Shown here piece by piece: positions 5,270 through 58,344 of a DNA stretch of 64,000 nucleotides; position 1 is the first letter of the stretch, and each line of letters begins with the position of its first letter. Source of the DNA: Candidatus Nomurabacteria bacterium GW2011_GWE1_32_28 (GTDB lineage: Bacteria > Patescibacteriota > Minisyncoccia > Phycocordibacterales > UBA9973); assembly GCA_000989515.1 (NCBI GenBank), contig LBOM01000003.1, positions 111,833 through 175,832 of the forward strand, written 5' to 3'. The notes beneath the pieces are model-generated. The model made no database searches and was not told the origin of the DNA. It was given only the letters and a program-made list of their open reading frames with translations. Made by a program: the position numbers and the translations under genes.

Positions 5270-7762
5270 CTACTTAACTTCTCCAAAATTATTTCCAAAA
5301 CCAGAATGTACTATCAATGGAATGTCTGTTTTATATTGCAAATAAGATCTCTGAAGAACAGATTCCATTGCATTTTTAATAATTATCTCGACATTTTCAA
5401 GAATATCTTCTTCTACTTCATAAACTAATTCATCGTGTATCTGAAGAACAAGATGGGCTTTCTCTAAAAATCCTTCCCTCTTTAAATCTTCTTCAGAATA
5501 TCTTATCGCGAGTTTTATTATATCAGCAGTCGCTGTACCCTGAATTGGTGCATTGATGGCTGTGCGTTCAGCCATATTTTTTAAAAATGGAATTCTAGAA
5601 TTTATATTAGGAAAGTATCTTCTTCTATTAAACAATGTCTCTGTATATAAATGTCTTGTCGCAAAAATCTTTACACTTTCTAAATAATTTTTTACACCAG
5701 AAAATTGATTAAAATAATTATCATAAAATTTCTGTGCTTCTTCACGAGTACCACCTAAGCTCTTGCGTAAAGATGAAACACCCATACCATAAATAATTCC
5801 AAAATTTATTACTTTTGCCTTACGGCGCATCTCACCATCTACTTTTTCAAGTGGAACACCAAAAACAAAAGAAGCTACTCCAGAATGAATGTCTTTACCA
5901 TCACAAAATATTTGTGTCATTTTTGGGTCTCCCGAGAGCATAGCAGCGACACGAAGCTCTATTTGACTATAATCAAAAGTCAAAAGTTTATATCCTTTTC
6001 CTGCTATAAAACCATTTCGTATCTTTTTACCTAATTCTGTTTTAATAGGTAAATTTTGCAAATTTGGATCTTGAGAAGAAAATCTCCCCGTTGTTGTGCC
6101 GTTTTGTAAAAATTTTGCATGCAAACGATCATCTTCATCTGTCATTTTAGGAATTACATCAATATAAGTAGAAAGTAATTTCTGTAATTCTCTATAAGCT
6201 AATATTTCTTTTATTATTGGATTATTTTCTTCAAGTTCTTCTAATACAGAAACTTTTGTAGAAAAAGACCCACTCGCATTTTTCTTTTTGCTTGATTTCA
6301 TTCCCATTTTATCAAACAAAACTTCTCCTAATTGTTTTGGGGAATTTATGTTAAATTCTAAACCAGACATCTTATATATCTTTTGAGTTAATTTATCTAA
6401 TTCCTTGTGATACTCTTTTGATAAATTTTCAAAATATTTCTTATCTATCAGAATTCCATGGTCCTGCATTTTTTTTACCATGGGTATTATAGGTTTTTCT
6501 ATTTCTTTATATATTTTTTCTAATCCCTTATCTTTTAATTCTTTAAACACATATTCTTTTGCTATTTCAAAAGAATCAGTATTTGCATAATGCAAAACAT
6601 CATCTAGTGTTGGATTTGTAATATCTGAATTTATAATCCAAAGTGCAATTGCTGTTTCTTGTAATTTGTTTTTATCTATAATAATTGGCTTTTGGTGGAC
6701 GTGCTCAGAGGAGTATTCGCTACTACCAGATAAATCTTGCCCTTCCAAGATAGAGTGCGAACGACGGCGAGCATCGTCGCCAGAAGCCAAATTATTATTT
6801 TCATCAAAAAAACTTTTTAATCTTGAATATAGACTTCTAAATTCAAACACTGAAAACATATTTTCAATTTTTTTCAAATCTGCATTCTCCCAAAAAGTTT
6901 TTTCTTGTAATTTAAAATCAACAGGTGCATCAGTTCTTATTTTTGCTAATGTTTTTGAAAATAAAGCTTCTTCTTCGTTATCTTTCAAAAGTTGTATTAT
7001 ACGATCTGTAAGTCCTAATTTTTTAAATTCTAATTCGTAATTCGTAATTCGTAATTGTCTATAAATTTCTTCTATTGTTCCAAAATTAACAATCAAATTC
7101 GTCGCCGTCTTCTCACCAATTCCTTTAATACCAATAATATTATCAGATGGATCTCCTCTCAATCCTTTATAGTCTGGCAACAACTTCGGTTTAAAACCAA
7201 ACCTATCAATCATTTTTTCTTCATCATATAAAATAGTGTCATTAATCCCCTTCTTTAAAGTATAAACTTGTACTTTTTTACCATCAACTAATTGCATCGT
7301 GTCCATATCTCCTGATGCAATAATTATATTTATATCTGGAATTTTTTTTCCGCCAGAGGCGGATCCGCCTCTGGCGGAAATTTTCTCTACAATCGTACCT
7401 AATACATCATCAGCCTCAAAGCCTGGCGCATCATAAATAGGAATATTAAATGCATCAAAGATTTGTCGAGAGTTTTTTAGTTGTAAAATTAAAGCATCTT
7501 CAGTTTTTGCTCTCCCTAATTTATACCCATCGTATGCTTCATGCCTAAAAGTCTTTTGCGGTAAATCATAACAAGCAACAATATAATCTGGTTTTAGATC
7601 AGTAATTATTTTCATTAACATACTAGAAAGACCATACAATGCCCCAGTAGGCTCACCCTTAGAAGACAAAAACTCAGGCAATGCATGATAAGCACGATGT
7701 ATTATCGCATGAGCATCTAATAATACTAATGTTTTTGATAAATTTTTATTATTTTTGACCAT
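5270..7762 (-). CDS. polA: DNA polymerase I (5'-3' exonuclease plus polymerase domains; 3'-5' exo domain reduced)
   Basis: 830 aa. N-terminal 5' nuclease (LVLLDAHAIIHRAYHAL...) and C-terminal pol motifs (DYSQIELR, RRKAKVINFGIIYGM, QIHDELVYEV). It carries three foreign in-frame segments: a perfect palindrome at 7347-7380, a family-A element at 6705-6775 and a heptad repeat at 7026-7057. Confidence 0.95.
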   Translation of the reverse strand: MVKNNKNLSKTLVLLDAHAIIHRAYHALPEFLSSKGEPTGALYGLSSMLMKIITDLKPDYIVACYDLPQKTFRHEAYDGYKLGRAKTEDALILQLKNSRQIFDAFNIPIYDAPGFEADDVLGTIVEKISARGGSASGGKKIPDINIIIASGDMDTMQLVDGKKVQVYTLKKGINDTILYDEEKMIDRFGFKPKLLPDYKGLRGDPSDNIIGIKGIGEKTATNLIVNFGTIEEIYRQLRITNYELEFKKLGLTDRIIQLLKDNEEEALFSKTLAKIRTDAPVDFKLQEKTFWENADLKKIENMFSVFEFRSLYSRLKSFFDENNNLASGDDARRRSHSILEGQDLSGSSEYSSEHVHQKPIIIDKNKLQETAIALWIINSDITNPTLDDVLHYANTDSFEIAKEYVFKELKDKGLEKIYKEIEKPIIPMVKKMQDHGILIDKKYFENLSKEYHKELDKLTQKIYKMSGLEFNINSPKQLGEVLFDKMGMKSSKKKNASGSFSTKVSVLEELEENNPIIKEILAYRELQKLLSTYIDVIPKMTDEDDRLHAKFLQNGTTTGRFSSQDPNLQNLPIKTELGKKIRNGFIAGKGYKLLTFDYSQIELRVAAMLSGDPKMTQIFCDGKDIHSGVASFVFGVPLEKVDGEMRRKAKVINFGIIYGMGVSSLRKSLGGTREEAQKFYDNYFNQFSGVKNYLESVKIFATRHLYTETLFNRRRYFPNINSRIPFLKNMAERTAINAPIQGTATADIIKLAIRYSEEDLKREGFLEKAHLVLQIHDELVYEVEEDILENVEIIIKNAMESVLQRSYLQYKTDIPLIVHSGFGNNFGEVK
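6705..6775 (-). repeat. Family-A GC-rich inserted element, in-frame in polA (encodes ...[25 protein letters not shown]...)
   Basis: Near-identical to 435-500 (uvrA), in the same orientation relative to the coding strand. Confidence 0.7.
7026..7057 (-). repeat. (AATTCGT)n heptad tandem repeat, in-frame in polA (encodes LRITNYELEF)
   Basis: aattctaattcgtaattcgtaattcgtaattg. It belongs to the dispersed heptad family seen in intergenic regions and other genes across the window. Confidence 0.8.
7347..7380 (-). repeat. 34-bp perfect GC-rich palindrome inside polA (encodes ISARGGSASGGKKI)
   Basis: TTTCCGCCAGAGGCGGATCCGCCTCTGGCGGAAA is a perfect inverted repeat centred on GGATCC. Confidence 0.8.
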
Positions 7763-11898: not shown

Positions 11899-12438
11899 AT
11901 GTCAGGACATAATAAATGGTCACAAATAAAACACAAAAAGGGCATCACAGATGCGAAAAAGAGTAAAATTTTTTCTAAACTTGTGCGTTTTATATCAGTA
12001 GAAGCAAAGCTTGCAAGCGGAGATGTAAATGCACCAGGACTTAGAGCTGCAATAGAAAAAGCCAAAAAAGTAAATATGCCTTCTGAAAACATAGAAAGAG
12101 CAATAAAGAAAGCCTCAGAAACAGGAGCACAAATGGAGTCTATTGTATACGAAACTTATGGGCCAGGAGGTGTTGGTATTATAATTGAAACATTAACAGA
12201 CAGTAGAAACAGAACAGCTCAAGACATAAAGCACATCCTGAGTAAAAATAATTTTATGCTCGGTGGAATAGGATCAGTAGCCTGGTCTTTTACTAAAGAA
12301 AAAACAGAAGAAGGAATATTGTGGAAACCAAATATGTTTATATCAATTTCTGATGATGATTTGGTGTTATTAGATAAACTTGTAGAAGAACTAGAAGAAA
12401 ATGATGATGTGCAAGATATCTACACAAATGCAGAATAG
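11899..12438 (+). CDS. yebC: YebC/PmpR-family transcriptional regulator (short form)
   Basis: MSGHNKWSQIKHKKG...KIFSKL at the N-terminus is diagnostic for YebC. Confidence 0.85.
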   Translation: MSGHNKWSQIKHKKGITDAKKSKIFSKLVRFISVEAKLASGDVNAPGLRAAIEKAKKVNMPSENIERAIKKASETGAQMESIVYETYGPGGVGIIIETLTDSRNRTAQDIKHILSKNNFMLGGIGSVAWSFTKEKTEEGILWKPNMFISISDDDLVLLDKLVEELEENDDVQDIYTNAE

Positions 12439-12443
12439 GAACA

Positions 12444-12476
12444 ATTACGAATTATCAATTACGAATTACGAATTTA
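12444..12476. repeat. Heptad repeat (AATTACG orientation) between yebC and ruvC
   Basis: caattacgaattatcaattacgaattacgaatt followed by TAAAATATAC and the ruvC ATG 11 nt later. Confidence 0.8.
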
Positions 12477-18963: not shown

Positions 18964-20307
18964 CTATTTAAACATAATTCTTATTTGCTCTATCTCTTGT
19001 AATAATTGTGGATCATTTTTTAGGTCTGTTTTTATTTTTAAATAGGAATGAATTACTGTTGTGTGGTCTTTTCCACCAAGTTTTTGTCCTATTAGTGGAT
19101 AGGACACATTAAAATCTTCTCTAAGAATATACATTACTATTTGTCTTGCTTTTACTATTTCTTTTCTTCTTGTCTTTTCATATATTGATGACTCCTCAAG
19201 AGAATAATAATCACTTATTGTTTTTACCACTTCTTTTATGGATACATTTTTCTTTTGTTTTATGTTATTTTTGAGTAAGTTTTTTACTTCTGGTATTGTA
19301 AGAGGTTTATTTTTGAGTCTATAGTGACAAACTATTGTATTTAAACTCCCCTCTAGCTCCCTTATGTTTCCTTGTATTGACTGTGCAACATATTCTATTA
19401 TTTCTTGACCCAAATCAATATTTTGTTCTTTTAATTTTACTTTTAATATTGCAAGACGTGATTCATATTCTGGTTCTGAAACATCAACTATCATTCCAGC
19501 TGCAAAACGGGATTTGAGACGATCTGCTAGTTCGGGAATATAGTTTGGATGTTTATCTGAAGAAAAAATAATTTGTTTATTGTTTTCGTAAAATGTATTA
19601 AATGTATGAAAAAGTTCTTCTTGTATTTTTTCCATTTTACCAATAAATTGTATGTCATCTATAATTAAAAGATCATATTTTCTATATTTTTCCTTAAAAG
19701 AGTTTGCTTTGTTATTTTGTAGTGAATTTACAAAATCAGTAGCAAATTTTTCTAGGGTTATATAGTGTACTTTTTTGTTTGGATATTTATCTTTTATTGA
19801 ATTCCCCACTGCTTGAATTAGATGTGTTTTTCCGAGCCCAGTTCCACCATAAACAAAGAAAGGGTTATACTTGGTACCAGGATTTTCTATTATTGCTTGA
19901 GATGCAGCGTGTGCGAGTTCATTAAAAGTTCCAACTATAAAAGAATTAAAATGATATCTAGGGTTTAGATTATCATCTGGATTTATATATAGATCTCTTA
20001 GTGGTAGTTCTTTGTTTACATAAGATTCGCTTACTTTTATTGGCTCTTGTTTATTTGTTTCTATCTTTGTAATAACATATTCTACCGCTCTCATGTTTTC
20101 ATATGAATCTGCTATGGTTTTTGTTATTAGTTTGTGATATTTATTTTTTAACCAATCACGTACAAACTCATTTGGTACTCCAACATAAACGATACCAATT
20201 TCCTCTTTTATAATACATGTATTTTTAAACCATGTGCTAAAGTTTGCCTTAGAAACACCACCTTCTATTTCTACTAGACAATTTTTCCAGAGTTGTTTTA
20301 TATCCAT
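18964..20307 (-). CDS. dnaA: Chromosomal replication initiator DnaA
   Basis: AAA+ Walker A GGTGLGKTHLIQAVGN, and a C-terminal DNA-binding domain with the DnaA signature (IGQKLGGKDHTTVIHS). Confidence 0.95.
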   Translation of the reverse strand: MDIKQLWKNCLVEIEGGVSKANFSTWFKNTCIIKEEIGIVYVGVPNEFVRDWLKNKYHKLITKTIADSYENMRAVEYVITKIETNKQEPIKVSESYVNKELPLRDLYINPDDNLNPRYHFNSFIVGTFNELAHAASQAIIENPGTKYNPFFVYGGTGLGKTHLIQAVGNSIKDKYPNKKVHYITLEKFATDFVNSLQNNKANSFKEKYRKYDLLIIDDIQFIGKMEKIQEELFHTFNTFYENNKQIIFSSDKHPNYIPELADRLKSRFAAGMIVDVSEPEYESRLAILKVKLKEQNIDLGQEIIEYVAQSIQGNIRELEGSLNTIVCHYRLKNKPLTIPEVKNLLKNNIKQKKNVSIKEVVKTISDYYSLEESSIYEKTRRKEIVKARQIVMYILREDFNVSYPLIGQKLGGKDHTTVIHSYLKIKTDLKNDPQLLQEIEQIRIMFK

Positions 20308-21014: not shown

Positions 21015-21228
21015 TTTTTATCAAAAGTTTTTATCACCTGTAATTACTGGGTTTTTGGATTATTTTGGATTATTAAAGAACAATTCATGTGTTTTTTATC
21101 CAACTTGCTCAGAATATACAAAAGAGGCTATAAAAAAGTATGGTATTTTGAAGGGCTCATGTCTTGGTTTTTTAAGAATTCTTCGTTGTCACCCATGGCA
21201 AAAGAACCACATAGATCAACTGAAATAA
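20980..21228 (+). CDS. yidD: Membrane protein insertion efficiency factor YidD
   Basis: FYQKFLSP...CVFYPTCSEYTKEAIKKYG...RILRCHPW is the YidD signature. The true start is probably an internal Met. Confidence 0.75.
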   Translation: MKLKIHSIKLINFYQKFLSPVITGFLDYFGLLKNNSCVFYPTCSEYTKEAIKKYGILKGSCLGFLRILRCHPWQKNHIDQLK

Positions 21229-21277
21229 TTAACAATTTCAAATTATGAATTATAAATTTAGAAATGTATTTGTATTT

Positions 21278-21312
21278 TAATTCGTAATTGATAATTCGTA
21301 ATTTGTAATTGA
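21278..21312. repeat. Heptad repeat between yidD and yidC (opposite orientation to the 12444 copy)
   Basis: tgtattttaattcgtaattgataattcgtaatttgtaattg, including the recurrent TGTATTTTAA flank. Confidence 0.8.
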
Positions 21313-21334
21313 ATCAATTTTCGTATAGAATAAG

Positions 21335-22070: not shown

Positions 22071-22580
22071 ATGAATAAAAATGAAATTCAAAATTTAATA
22101 AAAGAACTTATAGAAAGGACCACAATATCTGTAAATAAAATTACCACAGATGAAGATAAGCCAGCCACTCTTCGTTCTGATCAAGACAATACTACGTGGT
22201 TTTCTGTGGAAGTAAATCAACCACATTATTTTTGGGATCGTGGAGGAGAAGCACTTTTTGCTATAAATCATTTAGTTCGCAGAATAATTGAAAACAAAAC
22301 TTCTCACAATGAAGAGTTAAACGAAAAACAACGTGGTCTTGGTATTCTGGTTGATGTTAATGGTTTTCAAAAGAAACGCATAGAGAATATTCATGCCACA
22401 GCACACATGATGGCAGAAAGAGCTAGATATTTTAAATCAAACATAGAGATTGATCCAATGCCAGCTTTTGAACGCAGGATAGTTCATGAATTTTTATCTG
22501 ACGCGACTGATTTGAAAACTGAATCACAAGGTGAGGGTTTTTCTCGTAGGGTAGTTATAAAGTACACGGGCTCAATTTAA
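22071..22580 (+). CDS. jag: Jag-like KH/R3H RNA-binding protein
   Basis: C-terminal R3H motif (RRIVHEFLSD...GEGFSRRVVIKY) in the canonical position after yidC. The start is taken at the ATG after the yidC stop. Confidence 0.75.
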   Translation: MNKNEIQNLIKELIERTTISVNKITTDEDKPATLRSDQDNTTWFSVEVNQPHYFWDRGGEALFAINHLVRRIIENKTSHNEELNEKQRGLGILVDVNGFQKKRIENIHATAHMMAERARYFKSNIEIDPMPAFERRIVHEFLSDATDLKTESQGEGFSRRVVIKYTGSI

Positions 22581-22650
22581 AATTACGAATTACGAATGAT
22601 CAATTGGGAATTCAAATTTAGGCATCTTTTTCAATTCGTAATTCGTAATT
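22581..22650. repeat. Inverted pair of heptad repeats forming a 17-bp-stem hairpin between convergent jag and the island's last gene
   Basis: AATTACGAATTACGAAT at 22581-22597 and ATTCGTAATTCGTAATT at 22634-22650 are perfect reverse complements, separated by 36 nt. Confidence 0.7.
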
Positions 22651-22682
22651 TGAAATTCTTAATTAATTAAAATAGATCTTAT

Positions 22683-24029
22683 TTATTTTGATTGTAGTTC
22701 CCAGAGATAAGAATCTTTTTTATTTATAAAAAATAGAAAATTTTCATCTTTATCTAATCCTAATTTTATACCATCTATCTCTTCCCCGTCCTCAACTGAA
22801 AGAGGGTCTATTATTTTTGTGGTAACTCCACTTTGAATATTTATTTTCCAGATTTCATCTGAGAAAGAAACTTCACCTTGATACCAAGAATCTGGATAAG
22901 TTAGATTATCTATATATTTAGGTACAGCACAATAAATAGTATCACTTTTGGATCCCCATGTACACTTTTCTGGTAGTGTCTTTAATCCGATCATATTATA
23001 ATCTCCTGTGCTTATATTAAAGACACTTAACGATAGGTTGTTGTCACCATAGAGAACTATTTCTCCGTTTGGGCTTGTTAAGGTAGTTAATCCATTTATT
23101 CCGCCCAATATTTTATCGAAGTCTTTTTTTTCTGTGTCTATTTTATACATATATCCAGGAACGTTGTATGAAGGTTTTGTTGTGACTGTAATTATTTTTT
23201 CATTAGGCCAGAAAGATAACCATTCTGTGAAAGATGAGTCAAATGCTTGAATTTTTGTATCTGATTGTAAAGATTGAATTATTCCAATTATATTATTTTC
23301 TACATTAAATAAATAAAATATTTTTTCTGTATTAGGAGAGATGCTTATATCAGAAACATTCTCTGGTAAAAATGAACCGTTTATTTCGTTCATTCCTATT
23401 GAATCTGCCCCTAAATATTCTTTTGGAAGAGTACCCATAAAAGTTTCTACTGTTTTATTATCTTTTTTAAAATATCTCATCATTATTGATTCTCCATTGT
23501 TTCCAAAAAAAGCATCATATACCTTAGGTATCATAGTAGAAGAGAATTTACGTTCATCTATTCTGTCTGCAAAAGTTTGATAAATATTTCCTGTAAATTT
23601 GTTTACATACCTTAATGCTGGTAAAAATTCTGTTGGTGGAGATATTGGTGTTGTTTCTACTTTTTCGATATTTGTTTTCTCTTCACCTGTATCGGTTGGT
23701 GTTGGGTTTGGATCTACTATGTTTTTAAATCTTTCTTTCGTAAATATTCCATAACCGGCTATTGGGAAGCTAGAAACCTTTTTTAATATTGAATTTTGAA
23801 TGTCTCCTTCTGATGTAGGTATATAACCAGAAACATCGACTGGTTGTGTTGTGTCTCCAGTGTTTGTATTTTTATTATTACCAAATGGTAAAAAATCTGA
23901 AAGGAAATTTATACTTTCTGTTACAACGCCACCTTGATTTGTTGGTTTATAAAAATAAAGAAATACAAAAGCACCGATTGTGATTATTAATAAAACTATT
24001 GTGAATAATATAATGTTTCTTTTTGACAT
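22683..24029 (-). CDS. Membrane-anchored secreted protein (N-terminal TM, Pro/Thr linker, beta-rich domain)
   Basis: 448 aa. Single N-terminal TM (ILFTIVLLIITIGAFVFLYFY), then a PTPTDTGEE linker. This is the first gene of the minus-strand island. Confidence 0.55.
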   Translation of the reverse strand: MSKRNIILFTIVLLIITIGAFVFLYFYKPTNQGGVVTESINFLSDFLPFGNNKNTNTGDTTQPVDVSGYIPTSEGDIQNSILKKVSSFPIAGYGIFTKERFKNIVDPNPTPTDTGEEKTNIEKVETTPISPPTEFLPALRYVNKFTGNIYQTFADRIDERKFSSTMIPKVYDAFFGNNGESIMMRYFKKDNKTVETFMGTLPKEYLGADSIGMNEINGSFLPENVSDISISPNTEKIFYLFNVENNIIGIIQSLQSDTKIQAFDSSFTEWLSFWPNEKIITVTTKPSYNVPGYMYKIDTEKKDFDKILGGINGLTTLTSPNGEIVLYGDNNLSLSVFNISTGDYNMIGLKTLPEKCTWGSKSDTIYCAVPKYIDNLTYPDSWYQGEVSFSDEIWKINIQSGVTTKIIDPLSVEDGEEIDGIKLGLDKDENFLFFINKKDSYLWELQSK

Positions 24030-25422: not shown

Positions 25423-25484
25423 ATTCGTAATTAATTTTTTTGTATTTTAAATTCGTAATTCGTAATTGATAATTCGTAATTGAT
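25423..25484. repeat. Heptad repeat element upstream of the 24041-25417 gene
   Basis: ttttgtattttaaattcgtaattcgtaattgataattcgtaattgattt. In gene sense it reads ...AATTACGAATTACGAATTTAAAATACAAAA, resembling TTACGA-17nt-TAAAAT. Confidence 0.8.
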
Positions 25485-26493: not shown

Positions 26494-26596
26494 CTCGTAA
26501 TTAATTTAATTATATCATTCGTAATTAATAATTCGTAATTGACCTCCCCTTTTTCTTTTTTAAATTCGTAATTCGTAATTGTTAATTCGTAATTGA
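26494..26596. repeat. Extended heptad repeat tract (~100 nt)
   Basis: aaactcgtaattaatttaattatatcattcgtaattaataattcgtaattgacc...taaattcgtaattcgtaattgttaattcgtaattgatt. Confidence 0.8.
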
Positions 26597-26606
26597 TTAT
26601 ATATTA

Positions 26607-28448: not shown

Positions 28449-28476
28449 CTTAATTCATAGTTCCTAATTGTTAATT
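28449..28476. repeat. Heptad-family repeat separating the two VirB4 parts
   Basis: ttaattcatagttcctaattgttaattcttaattga occupies the 32-nt gap between the stop of the N-terminal part (28478) and the ATG of the ATPase part (28445). The two parts are in different frames. Confidence 0.7.
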
Positions 28477-28477
28477 C

Positions 28478-39647: not shown

Positions 39648-39778
39648 ACAATTCGTAATTGATTTTATTATATCATTCCTAATTACTAATTTGTAATTAG
39701 TTTCCCACTTTTTTGTATTTTCAATTCGTAATTTGTAATTGACTTCCACTCTTCTTTTTTTTCTAATTCGTAATTGAC
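39648..39778. repeat. Extended heptad repeat tract (~130 nt) between island genes
   Basis: caattcgtaattgatttt...cattcctaattactaatttgtaattag...tgtattttcaattcgtaatttgtaattgacttcc...ttctaattcgtaattgacc. Confidence 0.8.
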
Positions 39779-41226: not shown

Positions 41227-42174
41227 CTACTCTTTTTTGTTGATATCTATGATTTTTGTGAGATTGATCCAATCTGAGAGAGTTAAATTTTCTGCTCTTT
41301 TGTTTCCAAGAGATTCTAACTTAATCATCGAGTCAAGGGCGGAGGCAATTCCTCCGCCCTTGAGAAATGTTTTTAAATTTGAGGAGAGTTTTTTTCTTTT
41401 ATGGGCAAAGCCAGTATGTATTATTTCCCAAAATTTCTCTTCATTTAGTTTATTTTTGATAAAAATTTTTCTTGAGATGTTTTTTATAGCGATTATTGCG
41501 GAATCTACCTTTGGGGCAGGAGAAAAATACCTTGAAGGCACCTTCATAATTATTTTAGGGCTCCCATATGCCTTTACTGATATGGATAAAATACTTTCCT
41601 TGCCGTCGCGTGCGACTATTCTCTTTGCTACTTCGTTTTGTACCATCAAGATCATCATCTCTGGTTGTTCTTTTTCTGAAAGAAACTTTTTCAATATGGC
41701 ACCAGTTATATTATAGGGAATATTAGCGATAATTTTATAAGAAAAATAATGAGGAATATTATTTTTAAAACCACACATATTTCCCTGCTGGGAAATTGCT
41801 ATGCTCGGCTCGACAGCCTGCGCAATGCTTTTAAAAACAACATTCCTCATTATTTTTCTAATTTGTAATTTGTAATTTGTAATTTGTAATTTTAGTATGT
41901 CATCATTTATTAAAATTAATTTCTGGTTTTTTATTTCTTCAGAGAATTTAATTTTTAGAAGTTCATAAAGTTCGTAGTCTTTTTCTATGGCTACAACACA
42001 GCCTGCTTTTTCTAAAAGTTTTTCTGTTAAGGCACCCTTTCCGGGTCCTATTTCTAGTATAATATCTCGAGAAGAAACTTCTCCAGCCTCTACTATTTTT
42101 TTTAATGCGATAGTAGATTTTAAGAAATTTTGACCTAATGATTTTTTTGCTTTGTGTATTTTCTGCATTTTCAA
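41227..42174 (-). CDS. rsmA: 16S rRNA (adenine1518/1519-N6)-dimethyltransferase
   Basis: SLGQNFL...ILEIGPGKGALTEKL... is the KsgA family signature. It has two foreign in-frame segments: a palindrome at 41333-41363 (encodes LKGGGIASAL) and an (AATTTGT)n repeat at 41858-41892 (encodes LKLQITNYKLQI). Confidence 0.9.
   Translation of the reverse strand: MKMQKIHKAKKSLGQNFLKSTIALKKIVEAGEVSSRDIILEIGPGKGALTEKLLEKAGCVVAIEKDYELYELLKIKFSEEIKNQKLILINDDILKLQITNYKLQIRKIMRNVVFKSIAQAVEPSIAISQQGNMCGFKNNIPHYFSYKIIANIPYNITGAILKKFLSEKEQPEMMILMVQNEVAKRIVARDGKESILSISVKAYGSPKIIMKVPSRYFSPAPKVDSAIIAIKNISRKIFIKNKLNEEKFWEIIHTGFAHKRKKLSSNLKTFLKGGGIASALDSMIKLESLGNKRAENLTLSDWINLTKIIDINKKE
41333..41363 (-). repeat. 31-bp GC-rich palindrome inside ksgA
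   Basis: TCAAGGGCGGAGG-CAATT-CCTCCGCCCTTGA is a perfect 13-bp inverted repeat. Confidence 0.8.
41858..41892 (-). repeat. (AATTTGT)5 heptad tandem repeat, in-frame in ksgA
   Basis: ctaatttgtaatttgtaatttgtaatttgtaatttt. Confidence 0.8.
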
Positions 42175-42206
42175 TTCGTAATTCGTAATTCGTAATTGTT
42201 AATTTG
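42173..42206. repeat. Heptad repeat between uvrD end and ksgA start
   Basis: caattcgtaattcgtaattcgtaattgttaatttg begins immediately after the ksgA start codon. Confidence 0.8.
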
Positions 42207-42210
42207 TAGT

Positions 42211-44244
42211 TTATATATAAATTGTTTTTATTCCTCCTTCCTCACCTTCTTTCTCTAGTATATCACTTGGAATATCTGAAATAAATTCAGATGGAGCATT
42301 TATTTGTCTAGAGCCAAATATTGTACGGAAATTTGCAAATGATAAAAATAATTTTTCACGAGCTCTTGTGATTGCTACGTAAAAAAGTCTACGTTCTTCT
42401 TCTTTGTCTTCTCCATTTTTACTCTCATTATTTCTTCTGTGTGGAAAAAGTCCATCTTCTAATCCTGTAGTAAAAATATATTTAAATTCAAGACCTTTTG
42501 ATGCATGCACTGTCATTAATTTGACAGCATTTGTTTCTGTTTTTTTATTTTCAGCAATCATCATTGAGTCTTGATCTGAGGCTAATGACGCATCTTCTAA
42601 AAGTTTCTCTATTCCCAATCCGTCCTTTGAATTATCATATTTTAGAGCCAATGTTACTAATTCTTTTATGTTTTCTAATCTTTCCATGTCTTCTTCTGTG
42701 CCGGTTGAAAGCTCCGTCTCTATTCCAGATTTTTTTACTGCGAACCTAATGACTTCAGATGCTTTTGAACTTTTAATTTTTTCTTTTATTTCTTCTAATA
42801 TTTTATAAAAATTATCTATCTTTATTTTTACTTTTATTGGTAGATTTTCCTTTTCTCCAGAAAAAAGTTTTATCAATGTTACTTTCCCTATTCCCCTAAC
42901 AGGGAAATTTATTATTCTTTTTATTTCAGAAAGACTTTCAGGATTTAGTGCGCAACGTAAATAAGCGAGAGTATCTTTTATTTCTTTTCTTTCAAAAAAT
43001 TTAACACCCAAAACTTGGTATGGAATATTGTATCGTAGCAATGCTTCTTCTAGAGCGCGGGATTGAAAATTTGCACGATAGAGGATGGCAACGTCAGACA
43101 AAATTATGGATGCTACCTTAGAAGGGTCGCTGTCTAGGTCTGTTGACCTAGCGCTGCCTCTCGGCTCGTCAGCCTGCGAGACACCCTTCAAAGGTACATC
43201 CGTAATTTTGTCTAAAAGTTCTAAAATTTTTGTTGCGACGAAATCAGCTTCATCATTTTCATCTAATGCTTCATATAGTCCTATCTTCTCTCCAGTTTTA
43301 TTTTTGGTAAATAAATTTTTATCAGGCCTGTATACATTCTTTTTTATTACCTCATTTGCTGCCTCTAATATGTTTTGAGTTGATCTATAATTCTCTTCAA
43401 GTAATATTATTTTTGTTTCTTTTCCATAATCTTTTTCAAAACTTAAAATATTTTTTAAATTTGCTCCACGCCAAGAATAAATATTTTGATCGGCATCTCC
43501 AACTACACAAATATTTTTATTTTTTTCAGAAAGCAAACGTGACATCAAATATTGTACTTCATTTGTGTCTTGATATTCATCTATGTGTATGTATTCCCAT
43601 TTTTCTTGATAGATTTTTCTTATTTCTTCTTTTTCTTTTAATAGTTTTGTTGCTTTTAAAAGTAGATCATCAAAATCTAAAGAATTCTCTTTAGCTTTTT
43701 TCTTTTCATATAGGGCCCAGACTTGAGCTACTAGTTTACTTAAATAGTCATACACTTTTTCCTCATAATCTTTTAAATGTGTGAATTTACCTTTTTCTCT
43801 ACTTATTATATTTTTTATTTTTCTAGGATCATATTGTTTTGGATCTATTCCTAATTCTTTTAGTGATTCTTTGATCAATGTAGTGGAATCAGAATCATCT
43901 AATATTGTAAAATGTCTAGTAAGACCCAAAATATGGGCATTTTCTTTGATTATATAGACTCCTAGTGAGTGAAAAGTAGACACAAAAGGAACAGAATCTT
44001 GACCTTTTATATGTTTTTTTATTTCTGAAATTATTCGTTCACGCATTTCTTTTGCTGCCTTGTTTGTGAATGTCACAGCTAAGATTTTATCTGGAGATAT
44101 TCCATTTTTAATTAAATTCAATATTCTATGTGTTATTGTCTTCGTTTTTCCTGCACCAGCTCCAGCGACAATCAAAATAGGACCATTCATATGAATGGCA
44201 GCTTCTCTTTGCATAGCATTTAGTCCTTTTAAGTGTTCTTCCAT
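42211..44244 (-). CDS. uvrD: UvrD/PcrA-family ATP-dependent DNA helicase
   Basis: LNAMQREAAIHMNGPILIVAGAGAGKTKTITHRI... with helicase motifs I-VI. The start is taken at MEEHLKG (ATG 44242-44244) immediately after TATAAT. The ORF-track start is at 44268. It has a family-B GC-rich insertion at 43124-43188. Confidence 0.9.
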   Translation of the reverse strand: MEEHLKGLNAMQREAAIHMNGPILIVAGAGAGKTKTITHRILNLIKNGISPDKILAVTFTNKAAKEMRERIISEIKKHIKGQDSVPFVSTFHSLGVYIIKENAHILGLTRHFTILDDSDSTTLIKESLKELGIDPKQYDPRKIKNIISREKGKFTHLKDYEEKVYDYLSKLVAQVWALYEKKKAKENSLDFDDLLLKATKLLKEKEEIRKIYQEKWEYIHIDEYQDTNEVQYLMSRLLSEKNKNICVVGDADQNIYSWRGANLKNILSFEKDYGKETKIILLEENYRSTQNILEAANEVIKKNVYRPDKNLFTKNKTGEKIGLYEALDENDEADFVATKILELLDKITDVPLKGVSQADEPRGSARSTDLDSDPSKVASIILSDVAILYRANFQSRALEEALLRYNIPYQVLGVKFFERKEIKDTLAYLRCALNPESLSEIKRIINFPVRGIGKVTLIKLFSGEKENLPIKVKIKIDNFYKILEEIKEKIKSSKASEVIRFAVKKSGIETELSTGTEEDMERLENIKELVTLALKYDNSKDGLGIEKLLEDASLASDQDSMMIAENKKTETNAVKLMTVHASKGLEFKYIFTTGLEDGLFPHRRNNESKNGEDKEEERRLFYVAITRAREKLFLSFANFRTIFGSRQINAPSEFISDIPSDILEKEGEEGGIKTIYI
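43124..43188 (-). repeat. Family-B GC-rich element, in-frame in uvrD (encodes ...ADEPRGSARSTDLDSDPSK...)
   Basis: gggtcgctgtctaggtctgttgacctagcgctgcctctcggctcgtcagcctgcgagacaccc matches the reverse complement of the uvrB insertion at 2224-2298, apart from the internal mini-hairpin. Confidence 0.7.
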
Positions 44245-48870: not shown

Positions 48871-49329
48871 TCATAAAATAATATCACTTACCACTTTTAT
48901 TCTTACTTTTTTTTCTTTTGGACACAAATATACAACAAGTAAATCAACTTGCCATTCTTTTTCTTCGTCAACATTCTTATTTAGGAGATAAGTTTGAATT
49001 GTCCTTGATAAACGTTTCATTTTCCATGGGTGCATATTGTCTTCAGCTCGATAAGAATCTTTTTCTTCACTTCTATCAATATTTTCTATATTTTTTTTAT
49101 TAAGTAGCGGTTCACGTGTAACATCAACAGTTAAAGTTTCACAAGAAACACTTTTTACTTCAACAAAATAGAGTTTCCCTTCTTTTTCTGCGACTATATC
49201 TATTTCGCCCCATTTTTTGGTGTAGTTACGATCTAAAATTGAAAAATTGTGTTTCATGAGGAACCTTGTAGCAATGCTTTCACCTATTTCCCCAGTTTTT
49301 TGTGTTTCTGATGTAAAAACTTTAGGCAT
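48871..49329 (-). CDS. yraN: YraN/UPF0102-family endonuclease
   Basis: GEIGESIATRFLMKHNFSILDRNYTKKWGEIDIVAEKEGKLYFVEVKS is the UPF0102 signature (GE.AE..A..YL...G..IL.RN.R...GEIDII...VFVEVK). Confidence 0.7.
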   Translation of the reverse strand: MPKVFTSETQKTGEIGESIATRFLMKHNFSILDRNYTKKWGEIDIVAEKEGKLYFVEVKSVSCETLTVDVTREPLLNKKNIENIDRSEEKDSYRAEDNMHPWKMKRLSRTIQTYLLNKNVDEEKEWQVDLLVVYLCPKEKKVRIKVVSDIIL

Positions 49330-49339
49330 AATAGTAATC

Positions 49340-49363
49340 GATTACGAATTAATAATTACGAAT
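49340..49363. repeat. Short heptad repeat (AATTACG orientation) upstream of yraN
   Basis: gattacgaattaataattacgaat. Confidence 0.7.
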
Positions 49364-49428
49364 AAAAAAGATAGATATTTGGTTCCTTTTTGTCTTTCAG
49401 GAAGTAGTTTCATAAGAAACATCTTTAA

Positions 49429-49922: not shown

Positions 49923-51512
49923 ATGAGCCCTTTAGAACTCAAAAACTTAATATCTAAAATTCCCAAAAAAGTTTTATTTGTAACGGACACGCTTGAAGAA
50001 GCAGGTTTTGAAGCGTACCTTGTTGGTGGGTGTATAAGGGATATTCTTATAGGTAGAGAACCAAAGGATTGGGACATAACGACAAATGCTAAACCAGAAC
50101 AAATTATTGGGCTTTTTGAAAAAACGGTATATGAGAATGAATTTGGTACTGTAATGGTTATTCAAGAAGATGTTTCACAAGAAACATTACGTCAAATAGA
50201 GGTTACACCATATAGAATTGAGGCAAAATATACTGATTTTAGGCACCCAGACGGGGTTTTATTTAGTAATGACATAGAAGATGATCTTAAGAGACGTGAT
50301 TTTACAGTAAATGCAATGGCTTTTAGACCTAAAGGACATGATAAAAACTTTGTAGATATATTTGGTGGTCTAAAGGACATAAAAGATAAAATATTAAAAG
50401 CGGTAGGCGAGCCTGATGATCGTTTTGTCGAAGATCCGCTTCGGATGCTTCGAGCCATTCGTATTGCTTTACAGCTTGGTTTTTCTATATCCTATGAAAG
50501 CAGTGAAAGTATTTTAAAAAATGCAGACTTAATAAAAAAAATATCACCAGAAAGAATTCGTGATGAATTTATAAAAATAATTATTTCACCAAATCCATCT
50601 GTTGGAATAGTGATGTTGCAAAAATTTGGATTATTAAAAAACATTATTCCAGAACTAGAAGAGGGAATAGGTTGTGAACAATCTGGGGAACATATCTATG
50701 ATGTGTGGAACCATTTACTTCATGCATTACAACATGCGGCAGATAAAGATTGGCCTTTAGAAGTAAGGCTCGCAGCCCTTTTTCATGATATTGGAAAACC
50801 AAAATCTAGGAGATCTATAGAAATAGAAGGAAATGCTCTCCGTCGTTCGCACACTATCTTGGAAGGGCAAGATCAAAAACTTTCGCAGCGAATACTCCTG
50901 CAAGCACATCCTTCTATTTCTAAGAAAAAATATACTTTTTATGGTCATGAAGTGATAGGGTACAGAATGGCAAAGAAAATATTAGAACGATTAAAATTTT
51001 CAAAAAAAGAAATTGAATTAATTGAAAAACTTGTTCGCAATCATATGTTTTTTTCTGATACAGAATTGATTACGCTTTCTGCTGTACGTAGAATTATTTC
51101 AAAAGTAGGAAAAGAAAATATTTGGCTTCTTATGGATGTCCGTGAGTGTGATAGAGTAGGCATGAAAAAAAAGGAAGCACCCTATCGTCTACGTAAATAT
51201 TTTGCAATGATAGAGGAAGCTCTACATGATCCTATATCTGTAGGACAGCTAAAAATAGATGGAGAATTCATGATTAAGGAACTTAAAATTAAGCCAGGCC
51301 CTAGAATGGGATGGATTTTACACGCTCTTTTGGAAGAAGTCTTAGATGACCCAACGAAGAATGATAAAGGACATCTTAGCCTTTTAGTTGAATCATTAAA
51401 TATGCTCGGTGATAATGAATTAAGGACATTGGGTGAAAGGGGAAAAGAAAAAAAGGATGAGCTAGAGATAGAAGAGATCGATAAATTAAAAAAGAGACAT
51501 GGAGTGAAGTAA
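49923..51512 (+). CDS. cca: CCA-adding tRNA nucleotidyltransferase with HD domain
   Basis: Pol-beta NTase head LVGGCIRDILIGREPKDWDITT, HD motif LFHDIGKP. It has a family-A GC-rich in-frame insertion at 50836-50900 (encodes ...[26 protein letters not shown]...). Confidence 0.9.
   Translation: MSPLELKNLISKIPKKVLFVTDTLEEAGFEAYLVGGCIRDILIGREPKDWDITTNAKPEQIIGLFEKTVYENEFGTVMVIQEDVSQETLRQIEVTPYRIEAKYTDFRHPDGVLFSNDIEDDLKRRDFTVNAMAFRPKGHDKNFVDIFGGLKDIKDKILKAVGEPDDRFVEDPLRMLRAIRIALQLGFSISYESSESILKNADLIKKISPERIRDEFIKIIISPNPSVGIVMLQKFGLLKNIIPELEEGIGCEQSGEHIYDVWNHLLHALQHAADKDWPLEVRLAALFHDIGKPKSRRSIEIEGNALRRSHTILEGQDQKLSQRILLQAHPSISKKKYTFYGHEVIGYRMAKKILERLKFSKKEIELIEKLVRNHMFFSDTELITLSAVRRIISKVGKENIWLLMDVRECDRVGMKKKEAPYRLRKYFAMIEEALHDPISVGQLKIDGEFMIKELKIKPGPRMGWILHALLEEVLDDPTKNDKGHLSLLVESLNMLGDNELRTLGERGKEKKDELEIEEIDKLKKRHGVK
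50836..50900 (+). repeat. Family-A GC-rich inserted element, in-frame in cca
   Basis: ctccgtcgttcgcacactatcttggaagggcaagatc...cgcagcgaatactcctgcaag is the reverse complement of the uvrA/polA copies. Orientation relative to the coding strand is the same in all three genes. Confidence 0.7.
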
Positions 51513-55494: not shown

Positions 55495-55500
55495 TTGATC

Positions 55501-56199: not shown

Positions 56200-58344
56200 A
56201 TGCAAAAAAAAGAGTATTCGGTAGAGATAGGTGGTAAGATATTAACCGCTATTTTCTCAAATTTAGCAGAACAAGCACATGGTTCAGTAATTTTAAAATA
56301 TGGTGAGACTATTGTGCTCGCTACGGCTTGTATGTCTAAAGACAGACAAGATGGTTTAGGGTTTTTTAATTTAACAGTAGATTATTTAGAAAAATATTAT
56401 GCTGTTGGAAAAATTTTAGGTTCTAGGTTTATGCACAGAGAAGGTAAACCATCAGAGGATGCAGTGCTCGCTTGTCGAGTAATAGACAGGACACTACGTC
56501 CACTTTTTGATCAGTCCATGCGTCATGCAGTGCAGATAATAGTTTCTGTCCTATCCTTAGACCAGGAAGATCCTACTATTTTGGCTGTGAATGCAGCTTC
56601 TCTTGCTCTTGCTGTCTCTGATATTCCTTGGGCAGGTCCTGTAGGAGCTGTACGTATTGGTAAATATGATAGTGATATTTTAACAGTGAGTCCCGCACAG
56701 AGTCTGAGAGAAGATGATTCTAAATATAAATTTGATCTTACTATTTGTGGAAAGGGTGGCAATATAAACATGATTGAAGCTGCTTCTCATCAGGTAAGAG
56801 AAGAAGAATTAGAAGAAGCATTTAAAAAAGCAAGTGAAGAAATAACAAAATTAGAAGATTTTCAAAAAAAGATAGTTGCAGAAATAGGTATCCCTAAAAG
56901 AGTAATAGAAAAAGAAAAGATAAGTGAAGAATCTATAAAATTATTTAATGAAAATATTTTGCCTAAAATGGAAGGAGCTTTGTTTTATGGTGTTGGTAAA
57001 AAGAAAATAGACGAATTACATAGTATTTGGAATAAAATGGTAAAGGATAATTATCCAGATAGGAAAGATTTTTCTCCTGAAGATGATCTTTTTGATAATA
57101 CAGAAAACGAAATGTTGCATAAAAAAGCTATTGATGAAGATAAGCGTGCTGATGGTAGAAAAATGGATGAACTTCGTGATCTATATGCTCAAGCTGGAGG
57201 ACTTTCTTCTATATTGCATGGTAGTGGGATTTTTTATCGTGGTGGAACACATGTACTTTCTGTTCTTACTCTTGGTGGTCCAGAGGATAAACTTTTGATA
57301 GATGGAATGGAAGCAAAAGAAGAAAAAAGATTTATGCATCATTATAATTTTCCTCCTTACTCAGGTGGTGAAGTCGGACGTACCGGTAATACTAATCGTA
57401 GAGAAGTAGGACATGGTGCTCTTGCTGAAAAAGCCTTGGCGATGGTACTGCCCTCTGTGGAAGAATTTCCTTATACTATGCGTTTAGTTTCTGAATCTAT
57501 GGCTTCCAATGGTTCTACCTCTCAAGCTTCTATTTGTGCTTCTGTTCTTGCACTTATGGATGGTGGAGTACCAATAAAAGCACCAGTTGGTGGTATTGCT
57601 ATGGGACTTATGATGGAATCAATTACGAATGAGCAATTACGAATTACGAAAGAACCTAGATACAAAATACTTACAGACATACAAGGACCAGAAGACCATC
57701 ATGGTGATATGGATTTTAAAGTTGCTGGTACAAGAGAAGGAGTGACAGCTATTCAACTTGATGTAAAAGTGGAAGGAGTACCAATAAAAATATTAGCTGA
57801 AGCTATGATTCAAGCTAAAATTGCAAGACTTGCTATTATAGATAGAATTGAAAAAGAAATTCCAAAAGCTAGAACTGAAATTTCTAAAAATGCCCCAAAG
57901 ATTTTAATTATAAAAATTAAGCCAGACCAAATAGGTATGGTTATAGGTGGAGGTGGAAAAACTATTAAAGATATAAAAGAAAGAACTGGTGCTGAAATAA
58001 CTATTGAAGATGATGGAACGGTATATCTAACAGGAAAAGATGATAAGGCAGAAATGGCAAAGAAAATAATTGAAGAAATGACACATGAATTTAATATTGG
58101 AGAAATTCTAAAAGGTGAAGTTGTAAGAATTGCAGATTTTGGAGCTTTCGTGAGACTTAATCCTTTTACTGATGGTATGGTTCATATTTCTGAAATGGCA
58201 CCATTTCGCGTAGAAAGAGTTAGTGATATTATAAAGGAAGGTATGATAGTGCCTGTGAAGATTTTGAAAGTTGATAGAGAGCAAGGCAAAATAAGTTTGT
58301 CTATCAAAGAAGCAGATAAAGATTTCTTCGCACCTAAAAAGTAA
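56200..58344 (+). CDS. pnp: Polynucleotide phosphorylase
   Basis: 714 aa. Two RNase PH domains, KH (IGMVIGGGGKTIK) and S1 (GEVVRIADFGAFVRL). It carries an in-frame heptad repeat at 57619-57650 encoding ESITNEQLRITKE. Confidence 0.95.
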   Translation: MQKKEYSVEIGGKILTAIFSNLAEQAHGSVILKYGETIVLATACMSKDRQDGLGFFNLTVDYLEKYYAVGKILGSRFMHREGKPSEDAVLACRVIDRTLRPLFDQSMRHAVQIIVSVLSLDQEDPTILAVNAASLALAVSDIPWAGPVGAVRIGKYDSDILTVSPAQSLREDDSKYKFDLTICGKGGNINMIEAASHQVREEELEEAFKKASEEITKLEDFQKKIVAEIGIPKRVIEKEKISEESIKLFNENILPKMEGALFYGVGKKKIDELHSIWNKMVKDNYPDRKDFSPEDDLFDNTENEMLHKKAIDEDKRADGRKMDELRDLYAQAGGLSSILHGSGIFYRGGTHVLSVLTLGGPEDKLLIDGMEAKEEKRFMHHYNFPPYSGGEVGRTGNTNRREVGHGALAEKALAMVLPSVEEFPYTMRLVSESMASNGSTSQASICASVLALMDGGVPIKAPVGGIAMGLMMESITNEQLRITKEPRYKILTDIQGPEDHHGDMDFKVAGTREGVTAIQLDVKVEGVPIKILAEAMIQAKIARLAIIDRIEKEIPKARTEISKNAPKILIIKIKPDQIGMVIGGGGKTIKDIKERTGAEITIEDDGTVYLTGKDDKAEMAKKIIEEMTHEFNIGEILKGEVVRIADFGAFVRLNPFTDGMVHISEMAPFRVERVSDIIKEGMIVPVKILKVDREQGKISLSIKEADKDFFAPKK
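57619..57650 (+). repeat. Heptad repeat (AATTACG orientation), in-frame in pnp
   Basis: tcaattacgaatgagcaattacgaattacgaa. Confidence 0.8.

Follow-up and report, generated by a model that had tools for sequence, protein, structure and literature searches.

Why should one short heptamer recur in tandem both between the genes of a bacterium and in frame inside several of them? The question is raised by a 64,000-nucleotide (nt) stretch of Candidatus Nomurabacteria bacterium GW2011_GWE1_32_28 (contig LBOM01000003.1, positions 111,833 to 175,832 of the forward strand), here called the window, in which arrays of the unit AATTCGT, or ACGAATT on the other strand, lie at gene junctions and within polA, ksgA, and pnp. 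We find that these heptad tracts are copies of one 35-nt element and that the same heptamer forms paired, complementary arms around a small four-helix-bundle gene (TIGR02436/PF05635) in many phyla and phages. The family, S23p, is known from intervening sequences (IVSs) of 23S rRNA and is related to Avd. We lean toward the view that the tracts of the window are solo and paired arms of a selfish repeat family of the IVS type; because the same repeat brackets the S23p gene so widely, we read it as a selfish repeat that crosses phyla rather than as a promoter or a phase switch.

Tandem heptanucleotide repeats, such as the short tandemly repeated repetitive (STRR) sequences and the TAACTGA repeats, have been known for decades, to our knowledge with no established origin or function. 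The S23p/23S-IVS four-helix-bundle family is widespread, and we know of no function for it either.

RESULTS

The heptad tracts are copies of a polar 35-nt element

The original prediction described a dispersed heptad family, and the counts agree with it. The probe AATTCGTAATTCGT, with up to two mismatches, matched the window 50 times against 0.97 expected (the largest number in a shuffle was 4), and a scan for period 7 returned 24 tracts, 23 of them with at least three units compared to 0.63 in shuffles. Tandem Repeats Finder (TRF) recovered the same arrays. The tract coordinates given earlier were correct to within about 25 nt, the offset arising because flanking sequence had been included. 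The longer flank said to be conserved, TTCTGTATTTTAAATTCGTAATTCGTAATTG, was found seven times at up to three mismatches, three times exactly, with none expected.

Rather than free microsatellites, the tracts represent a single discrete element, polar and present in about 20 copies. Exactly five units were present in 14 of the 24 tracts from the period-7 scan; AATTCGT is the usual first unit, AATTGAT or AATTGAC stands last, and both end units are conserved. In gene sense, the 35-nt consensus reads RTCAATT-ACGAATT-AWCAATT-ACGAATT-ACGAATT, with ATCAATT or GTCAATT at its outer end and ACGAATT ACGAATT at its inner end, often followed by TAAAATACAGAA. This consensus has 20 non-overlapping copies at up to nine mismatches (five with zero or one) and none in ten shuffles; 16 of the 20 lie between 21 and 42 kb. 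The arrays thus resemble STRRs and long simple sequence repeats in being head-to-tail 7-nt copies at many dispersed loci, and their modal five units and fixed unit order differ from what slippage, with array length free to vary, would give.

Sorted by form, the window's copies comprise two gene-less hairpins, no fewer than 10 solo arms at junctions between genes, and 6 or more that lie in frame. The hairpins are inverted pairs with ACGAATT-type units first and AATTCGT-type units second (RF order), separated by 20-nt loops, and their RNA fold z-scores run from −2.7 to −4.1; the solo element does not fold (z, +1.1). Reverse-complementary period-7 arms are found at these two pairs (21224–21313 and 22571–22667) and not at the solo copies. 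Orientation, as had been noted, is not uniform, given the two inverted pairs and an antisense copy at 49337. Within ORFs, however, the sense orientation is forced: (AATTCGT)n carries TAA in all three frames, whereas (ACGAATT)n has no stop and always reads TNYELRI, which explains the uniform orientation there.

Complementary heptamer arms flank a four-helix-bundle gene

The link to a gene emerged from reading the ORFs that lie between inverted tracts, and a small hidden Markov model (HMM) was then built. The ORFs so placed encode four-helix-bundle proteins in a Nostoc genome (L079), a Planctomycetota metagenome-assembled genome (MAG; L119), and Bacterium BMS3Bbin03 (L014), and in a 119-kb viral contig (L252) such an ORF sits directly between the inverted tracts. 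Other genes of this kind lie between inverted arrays of other units, namely, CACAGTT (L073), CCTCCTG (L047), and, in the window itself, 9-mers. A phmmer search with the four-helix-bundle protein of the window alone gave only one relative among 120 listed loci.

An independent sample comprised 80 metagenome loci encoding one subfamily (alignment A3), 71 of them with full flanks. A period-7 array was present within 200 nt upstream of the gene in 53 of the 71, downstream in 55, and on both sides in 46; in control windows displaced by 700 to 900 nt, the corresponding counts were 1, 2, and 0 of 41. At 41 of the 46 two-sided loci, the consensus units of the two arms are reverse complements. The arm units are of 25 distinct kinds, ACGAATT being the commonest, and 33 of the 46 have an AATT core. 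Inverted heptamer arrays are, then, tightly associated with the four-helix-bundle gene. The unit sequence varies by locus, yet complementarity between the two arms is preserved, as it should be if the stem itself is important or if each arm homogenizes the other. The generality of the array flanks is shown for subfamily A3 only, since alignment A1, of five sequences, was too diverse to scan a collection with and alignment A2, the subtype of the window, gave no matches when viral contigs were scanned.

The cassettes fit tightly between host genes, with arms of 2 to 10 units that end 4 to 30 nt before the ATG. At L127 and L138, the arms read xTCAATT ACGAATT AAAAATT ACGAATT ACGAATT, one to three mismatches from the window consensus and with the same five-unit layout. 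The gene of the window (29602–29949) matches PF05635 at 4e-31 and TIGR02436 at 7.7e-30; solved homologues of its protein, 2GSC and 2RLD, have five chains per entry each. Its flanking inverted arrays are of the TCATAAAGT-type 9-mer, an exact two-unit copy of which was also seen at 34195–34211, in the 34.2-kb junction beside a heptad element. No PF05635/TIGR02436 gene is enclosed by the heptad tracts of the window, both inverted pairs having 20-nt loops, and for this reason we class the tracts as arm-type repeats of the IVS-type family and not as complete cassettes.

The heptamer occurs in several phyla and in viral contigs

Exact (AATTCGT)3 was found in at least 120 stretches of the genome collection, with GC contents of 31 to 65%, and in 57 viral-contig stretches. 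Among the matches listed, the Nostocales are the largest host group, joined by Bacteroidota, Ignavibacteria, Acidobacteriota, Chloroflexota, Planctomycetota, Verrucomicrobiota, and a Shapirobacteria MAG. The gene context of these tracts rests on crude ORF calls. By those calls, and again among the matches listed, the tracts are mostly intergenic, unbiased in orientation to the downstream gene (38 versus 35), and found between convergent genes 32 times, compared to 10 times between divergent ones; all in-ORF copies are in the ACGAATT sense. Many are inverted pairs with loops of 10 to 100 nt, in which ACGAATT first and AATTCGT second is the favored order (14 versus 4). The heptamer and its arm architecture are therefore common to several phyla and to viral contigs. 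In four phage-like IMG/VR contigs (L211, L219, L223, and L230; 41 to 64% GC), ACGAATT-type arrays or inverted pairs occupy successive gene junctions, resembling the arrangement in the window described below. We found no description of the ACGAATT family, or of a general link between heptamer arrays and the S23p gene, in the literature covered, which included few subscription journals.

Copies in the window and their surroundings

The host belongs to the Parcubacteria, within the Candidate Phyla Radiation (CPR), and its genome is about 30% GC. The possibility of an assembly artifact is ruled out, because the window's proteins, identical to those of GW2011_GWF1_31_48 and related MAGs, occur on 10 to 11 independently assembled contigs of up to 410 kb and because a JGI contig (the P0010 contig; the same genome with another start-codon call) is 100% identical across 20.9 kb. 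The copies are as follows.

7025–7059, minus strand: in-frame polA copy, GACAATT, ACGAATT three times, and AGAATTT, encoding LRITNYEL
12440–12474, plus strand: solo element with one mismatch to the consensus, right after the yebC stop and 12 nt before ruvC
21224–21313, unstranded: gene-less inverted pair, RF hairpin with 20-nt loop, in the rnpA-yidC interval; z, −2.9/−2.7
22571–22667 (22571–22612/22633–22667), unstranded: gene-less inverted pair, RF hairpin; z, −4.1/−4.0
25438–25484, minus strand: perfect 35-nt element with inner flank TAAAATACAAAA, beginning directly after the stop of ORF 25485–26474
26509–26597, minus strand: a 132-nt junction containing two elements, of which the inner continues into the extended −10-like TGATATAAT
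28452–28486, minus strand: degenerate element covering the stop of a TraC-like ORF and the spacer before a VirB4-like gene
29205–29239, minus strand: in-frame copy (ITNEQLRITN) in PrgI-family ORF 29110–29520, translated as KITNEQLRITNKEKIITND
29533–29990, minus strand: not a heptad copy but the IVS-type cassette of the window, whose repeat unit is another one, with four-helix-bundle (TIGR02436/PF05635) gene 29602–29949 between inverted 9-mer arrays 29533–29564 and 29959–29990
30161–30297, minus strand: three in-frame copies in ORF 29991–30716, translation confirmed
33310–33356, minus strand: perfect element plus TAAAATACAGAA, with the stop codon of a Bro-N ORF inside the element
34236–34282, minus strand: perfect element plus TAAAATACAGAA, directly after the stop of ORF 34283–36712
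39650–39775, minus strand: cluster of three to four short copies in one 142-nt junction, a cluster being present also at the orthologous junction of the relative L204
40769–40801, minus strand: three-unit copy plus TAAAATACAGAA, not at the orthologous L204 junction
41860–41894, minus strand: in-frame (ACAAATT)4 in ksgA, matched in position by (ACGAATT)3 in the relative L203, so that the units have changed in concert
42173–42214, minus strand: copy filling the uvrD-ksgA spacer, with the ksgA start codon within the inner flank; the relative has a different heptamer array
49337–49371, plus strand: degenerate copy upstream of the UPF0102 gene, the sole intergenic solo copy antisense to local genes
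57618–57652, plus strand: in-frame pnp copy, ATCAATT ACGAATG AGCAATT ACGAATT ACGAAAG, an 11-aa lineage-restricted insertion

Tracts are densest at 22.6 to 42.2 kb, a region that encodes a set of genes resembling a type IV secretion system (T4SS; a VirB4/TraG-type ATPase, a TraC-like ORF, and the PrgI-family ORF) together with the Bro-N protein, large unknown proteins, and the one TIGR02436/PF05635 gene; ksgA and uvrD come after it. In this cluster the outer end of the element touches or runs across the upstream gene's stop codon, and a TAAAATACAGAA-like sequence follows the inner end, with the ATG 25 to 100 nt farther on. Relative to genes, the sense-strand bias of the window's copies is at least 10 to 1. 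No further copies were found in 16.7 kb beyond the window ends (8.6 kb past the left end, 8.1 kb past the right).

The pair at 22571–22667 sits between the convergent genes jag and ORF 22683–24029. The copy upstream of yidC that had been singled out as inverted is indeed so, as one arm of the pair 21224–21258/21279–21313 rather than as a lone copy. Assignment of the gene beside the 49337 copy (48871–49329) as yidC was rejected; it is UPF0102. The YebC/PmpR homologue at 11899–12438, whose stop lies one base before the element at 12440, has 179 aa compared to about 240 in profiles and aligns in two stretches. An Rfam scan of the window returned tRNAs only.

The genes dnaA (18964–20307), dnaN, rpmH, rnpA, yidC, and jag lie at 17.6 to 22.6 kb. 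The cumulative GC skew reaches its minimum at about 48 to 50 kb, where gene direction also switches, so the replication origin may not be adjacent to dnaA. Models in which tract orientation follows replication or follows transcription each leave one exception, the copy at 12440 following the genes and that at 49337 the replichore; with both flips at the same place, the two models stay inseparable in the window.

In-frame copies in Pnp, PolA, KsgA, and other ORFs

All of the in-frame peptides that had been proposed were confirmed by translation: LRITNYELEF in PolA, LQITNYKLQI in KsgA, ITNEQLRITKE in Pnp, and, in the two ORFs of the dense region, the PrgI-family peptide listed above and NNYELRITNED..ITNFELEITDG..ITNGQLPITNL (ORF 29991–30716). 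In Pnp, PolA, and the PrgI-family ORF, the copies have the unit order of the 35-nt element. That the segments in Pnp, PolA, and KsgA are insertions stood for Pnp, in part for PolA, and not for KsgA.

The Pnp segment amounts to 8 to 11 extra residues over solved PNPases and corresponds to a clean 33-nt insertion in the element's unit order. Among the 120 closest orthologues (78 to 87% identity), about three-quarters possess only the short loop GLMYESDDKYK, among them the nearest, at 87%; about 17 carry inserts of the type ITN(D/E/G)(E/Q)LRI(K/T)(K/N)EP and a few have degenerate variants (such as ISNSQFSISKEP or MTNDKFPMTKEP). Judged by these alignments, the segment is a true lineage-restricted insertion of 11 aa. 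The same loop (57600–57660; orthologues P0131–P0249) was seen to accept at least three unrelated kinds of insert, namely, the heptad, TSPQPSPYKGEGEIP, and GKISARSGQ/SKTKSRAGEGYDDSQNF, as would befit an insertion hot spot or a very permissive loop.

PolA gains seven residues at LRITNYEL relative to Taq polymerase and only two relative to close orthologues, which read KKIKKDEK there; about one-quarter of orthologues have the heptad-coded version or a decayed form. At 7347–7380, polA also contains a perfect 34-nt GC-rich palindrome (TTTCCGCCAGAGGCGGA/TCCGCCTCTGGCGGAAA) encoding ...GGSASGGK..., an extra segment compared to Taq polymerase, and some other CPR orthologues have a similar peptide (SAQGGSASGGK or AKGGPASGGK) at the heptad site instead.

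In KsgA, the loop F-x-I-T-N-Y-E-L-R-x-Y has the same length as in heptad-free orthologues, and exact ITNYELR recurs among distant CPR lineages. The 34 extra residues of KsgA stem from a separate element, a 121-nt in-frame hairpin (ksgA 41737–41862) with inverted ends of 18 to 37 nt and an RNA fold of −57 kcal/mol, which adds about 34 aa. Among 120 CPR KsgA orthologues, related inserts occupy the same loop in different frames and in both orientations, such that some carry ...ANFQQKI..., the reverse complement of the ...KFSAENF... carried by others. From these alignments, the hairpin is an in-frame palindromic element that recurs at one site, much like a Rickettsia palindromic element (RPE). No other full copy was found in the window; its 19-nt GC-rich core is matched in uvrD, where it led to a second in-frame element (43096–43213). 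Other inverted-repeat elements of about 100 to 120 nt in coding genes are at 2203–2320 (uvrB, whose 750-aa product aligns in two stretches), 416–517, and 50818–50922 (the CCA-adding enzyme gene). A smaller GC-rich palindrome in ksgA (41333–41363), with a 13-bp stem and nine G-C pairs in this 30% GC genome, leaves the length equal to that of Bacillus subtilis KsgA.

Turnover between relatives

We compared the window with two Nomurabacteria contigs, L203 and L204, in which KsgA is 79% identical to that of the window. The ksgA array is (ACGAATT)3 in L203 and (ACAAATT)4 in the window, every unit being altered alike with total length unchanged. At the uvrD-ksgA spacer, L203 (9961–10000) has GGCACTA GGCGTTA GGCTCTA GGCGTTA in place of the ACGAATT-type element. 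The ORF130-ORF309 junction is a 90-nt spacer with element and flank in the window and a 24-nt spacer in L204, in keeping with the portability claimed earlier; at the junction after it, both genomes have an element cluster, between flanking proteins that are 59 to 68% identical. Together with the Pnp insertion, present in some orthologues and absent from others, these differences show that copies are gained and lost between related genomes.

Slippage had been proposed as well. No length variants were found: over 10 to 11 contigs, each protein with an in-frame tract forms a single-member 90% cluster. The assemblies seem to represent one population, which makes this weak evidence against slippage. 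With interrupted arrays that are modal at five units, the proposal of a slippage-prone contingency repeat fares poorly. No transposition enzyme, target-site duplication, or pair of near-identical empty and filled sites was found.

Promoter-like features at the junctions

The module of element and flank had also been read as a portable promoter or operator. As a σ70-type promoter, TTAACA-17-TAAAAT scores 10/12 at two copies only; promoter-like sites in the dense region are not enriched (86 found versus 92.5 expected from shuffles); and TAAAAT is missing from about half of the copies and from the L204 modules, which read AAAAAG there. The evidence for this part of the prediction is therefore weak. 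Separately, extended −10-like motifs (TGATATAAT/TGGTATAAT in gene sense) occur at about 39664–39680, about 26503–26516, and, in L204, about 7455–7470. Each immediately precedes the heptad array nearest the ATG, and the motif is kept between the window and its diverged relative; given this position, that last array would fall in the 5′ untranslated region (5′UTR).

DISCUSSION

How might such a repeat spread and persist? In its complete form, as we read it, the element consists of two inverted arrays around a small four-helix-bundle gene (TIGR02436/PF05635); far more often, paired arrays enclose a short loop only. We imagine that copies spread at the DNA level, by templated copying or a process akin to gene conversion in which the repeat provides the homology, and that they persist only where they do no harm, at operon junctions and in permissive surface loops. 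Within ORFs only the ACGAATT orientation would survive, the other being lost because of its TAA in every frame. In the transcript, paired arms may fold into a stem of 20 to 30 bp that RNase III could cut, by analogy with the Coxiella IVS, while solo arms would be stemless remnants or half-elements. Any role of the solo arms in expression of the T4SS-like cluster is putative.

Several observations weigh against reading the tracts as arms of a selfish IVS-type family. Solo arms make up most of the window's copies, all of them facing the same way with respect to the genes and unable to form a hairpin (z, +1.1), and the four-helix-bundle gene of the window has 9-mer arms instead of this heptamer. 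Among about 177 listed loci picked by the heptamer, the gene lies directly between the arrays in only four, so that it would be an occasional cargo and not a requirement. In KsgA and PolA, the heptad-coded peptide takes the place of native residues rather than making a clean 35-nt addition, and no transposition enzyme, target-site duplication, or near-identical pair of empty and filled sites was found. Finally, 16 of 20 copies are confined to 21 to 42 kb, with none in the 16.7 kb beyond the window, and an element cluster is kept at an orthologous junction even though the flanking proteins are only 59 to 68% identical; these last two points are accounted for by a local function no less well, or even better, than by neutral junk.

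A local function might be transcriptional, the element and TAAAATACAGAA supplying a −35/−10 pair or a binding array for one regulator that coregulates the T4SS-like cluster. The element does lie 25 to 100 nt upstream of at least nine consecutive same-strand genes, in sense orientation; two copies reach 10/12 as σ70-type sites; and an extended −10-like TGnTATAAT borders the arrays near 26.5 and 39.67 kb, as it does at the corresponding position of L204. The concentration of copies in 21 to 42 kb and the cluster retained in a diverged relative point the same way. Nevertheless, we consider a promoter or operator rather unlikely, given the lack of enrichment, the poorly conserved TAAAAT, and the presence of the same element in frame inside pnp, polA, and the PrgI-family ORF. 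In other genomes, moreover, the tracts show no orientation bias to downstream genes and an excess between convergent ones, the arms of four-helix-bundle cassettes end 4 to 30 nt before the ATG, and a 7-bp spacing is awkward for a protein that binds double-stranded DNA. Another explanation is binding at the level of RNA or single-stranded nucleic acid, in which transcribed (ACGAAUU)n in spacers and 5′UTRs is a site for a protein that controls processing or translation, perhaps a cold shock domain (CSD) or S1 protein or the pentameric four-helix-bundle protein itself. MacGregor's model for TAACTGA repeats (PMC4679880) is of this sort. The sense-strand bias of the window is what it calls for, as are arrays between cistrons in CPR and phage-like contigs and a last array downstream of TGnTATAAT, hence in the 5′UTR; the five units per element may be set beside the pentamers formed by S23p homologues (2GSC and 2RLD, five chains each; PMC4990558). 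Such binding is hypothetical, however. Four-helix-bundle genes have arms of anywhere from 2 to 10 units, no bias in orientation is seen in other genomes, and the window's own gene has 9-mer arms. We regard this explanation as unlikely.

Two further explanations invoke no binding partner. Arrays might be born in place, arising and homogenizing by replication slippage in AT-rich DNA, immobile and without function, as in the long simple sequence repeats that Mrazek is said to have described. The concerted change of all units in ksgA and the different heptamer at the uvrD-ksgA spacer of the relative would follow naturally, as would the heptads of PolA and KsgA that replace native A/T-rich sequence of similar length; heptamers are also the commonest long simple repeat in many bacteria (PMC4679880). 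Yet the same unit and its variant ATCAATT occur in several phyla and in genomes of up to 65% GC, unit order and polarity are fixed, Pnp has a clean 33-nt insertion in that order, and the arrays are tightly tied to one gene family with complementary arms, all of which makes birth in place improbable. Contingency loci, whose genes would be turned on or off by gain or loss of 7-nt units, are in our estimate a highly improbable explanation of the arrays. A 7-nt unit would shift the reading frame, and the heptamer number upstream of S23p does vary among Coxiella strains (PMC4990558). Against this, 10 to 11 assemblies, probably of one population, have no length variants. The arrays, besides being short and interrupted, have a modal length of five units, and in the essential genes that contain in-frame copies a shift of frame would be lethal.

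We offer a bolder idea as speculative and distinctly doubtful: heptamer arrays could be the nucleic acid sites of pentameric S23p/Avd-like proteins, five units per five-subunit ring, forming a mobile protein-repeat system that crosses phyla and is comparable to the RAYT-REP pairing (REP, repetitive extragenic palindromic). If so, solo arrays such as those before the T4SS-like genes would serve as trans-acting sites at which the protein governs how host operons are processed or translated, and one explanation would cover both the STRR-type heptamers, known for 30 years, and an S23p family listed as "function unknown."

Whatever its function, one major heptamer family is now tied to the S23p gene family through complementary arms in many phyla and phages, and a CPR genome carries the same arms as gene-less hairpins, junction solos, and in-frame inserts (Pnp, PolA, and others). 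For annotators this is a warning, as ITNYELR-type peptides and "promoter-like" junction modules of CPR genomes are repeat derived. It also raises the questions of whether a pentamer binds five heptads, whether the stems serve as RNase III sites, and how arms are copied.

Comparison with known systems

The original prediction likened the tracts to RPEs, which are palindromes of 100 to 150 bp restricted to Rickettsia and found in frame in housekeeping genes, at permissive loops, as well as between genes. The likeness holds as a phenomenon, in-frame inserts in conserved genes (Pnp being the clean example) occurring alongside intergenic copies, but the heptad element is a 35-nt direct array that does not fold (z, +1.1), unlike a palindrome of about 100 to 150 bp; the RPE-like objects of the window are others, namely, the 121-nt hairpin of ksgA and the elements in uvrD and uvrB. 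With REP sequences, bacterial interspersed mosaic elements (BIMEs), and repeats of the MITE type (miniature transposable elements with inverted repeats), it shares a noncoding, hairpin-forming, dispersed character, enrichment at 3′ ends and between convergent genes, and both paired and solo forms. It differs in that no terminal inverted repeats, target-site duplications, RAYT-like partner, or transposase partner was seen and in that its stems are made of tandem heptamers.

Cyanobacterial STRRs, reportedly introduced by Mazel and colleagues in 1990, are said to be dispersed tandem heptanucleotide arrays, mostly intergenic and of no known function, with CCCCAGT, TTGGTCA, and CAACAGT as the classic units. 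The dispersed heptamer arrays are alike, and the Nostocales are the largest group among the exact (AATTCGT)3 matches listed; the units differ, and the host here is a CPR bacterium of about 30% GC. The closest described parallel is the TAACTGA heptamer, whose direct repeats occur in marine Beggiatoaceae, Cyanobacteria, and Bacteroidetes (MacGregor 2015, PMC4679880). Both form short arrays (two to six copies for TAACTGA) of one heptamer, mostly intergenic with occasional in-ORF copies; both are patchy across phyla, with no known mechanism of transfer; and in one genome TAACTGA repeats mostly precede start codons, in the "forward" orientation. Membership of the window's tracts in the TAACTGA-type network was rejected: their unit is of the ACGAATT family, and their arrays end 25 to 100 nt before the ATG, not over the ribosome-binding site. 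The fixed five-unit polar layout is a further difference, and inverted pairing and a four-helix-bundle link are undescribed for TAACTGA.

The IVS of Coxiella burnetii 23S rRNA has been called a selfish element. It carries an S23p ORF, in front of which stand two or three tandem heptamers (GACAGAT; strains differ in the number), and RNase III cuts the IVS out (PMC4990558). The Xanthomonas S23p is a homopentamer (PMC4990558), and rRNA insertions in the CPR contain 23S_rRNA_IVP ORFs (PMC11270868). With such IVSs (Leptospira, Coxiella, and Xanthomonas-type S23p), the heptad system shares the protein family of gene 29602–29949, an ORF in the loop of a stem built from inverted flanks, tandem heptamers beside the ORF (in Coxiella), and a character regarded as selfish and horizontally moved (PMC4990558). 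Unlike them, the heptad elements sit at protein-gene junctions and inside ORFs and not in rRNA, their arms are whole heptamer arrays, and most copies are without an ORF, in the window mostly as single arms; RNase III cleavage, shown for the Coxiella stem, is a prediction for the heptad stems. The heptad element belongs with two known kinds, the heptanucleotide STRR-like repeats and the IVS-type S23p elements, and provides a testable lead toward a link between them.

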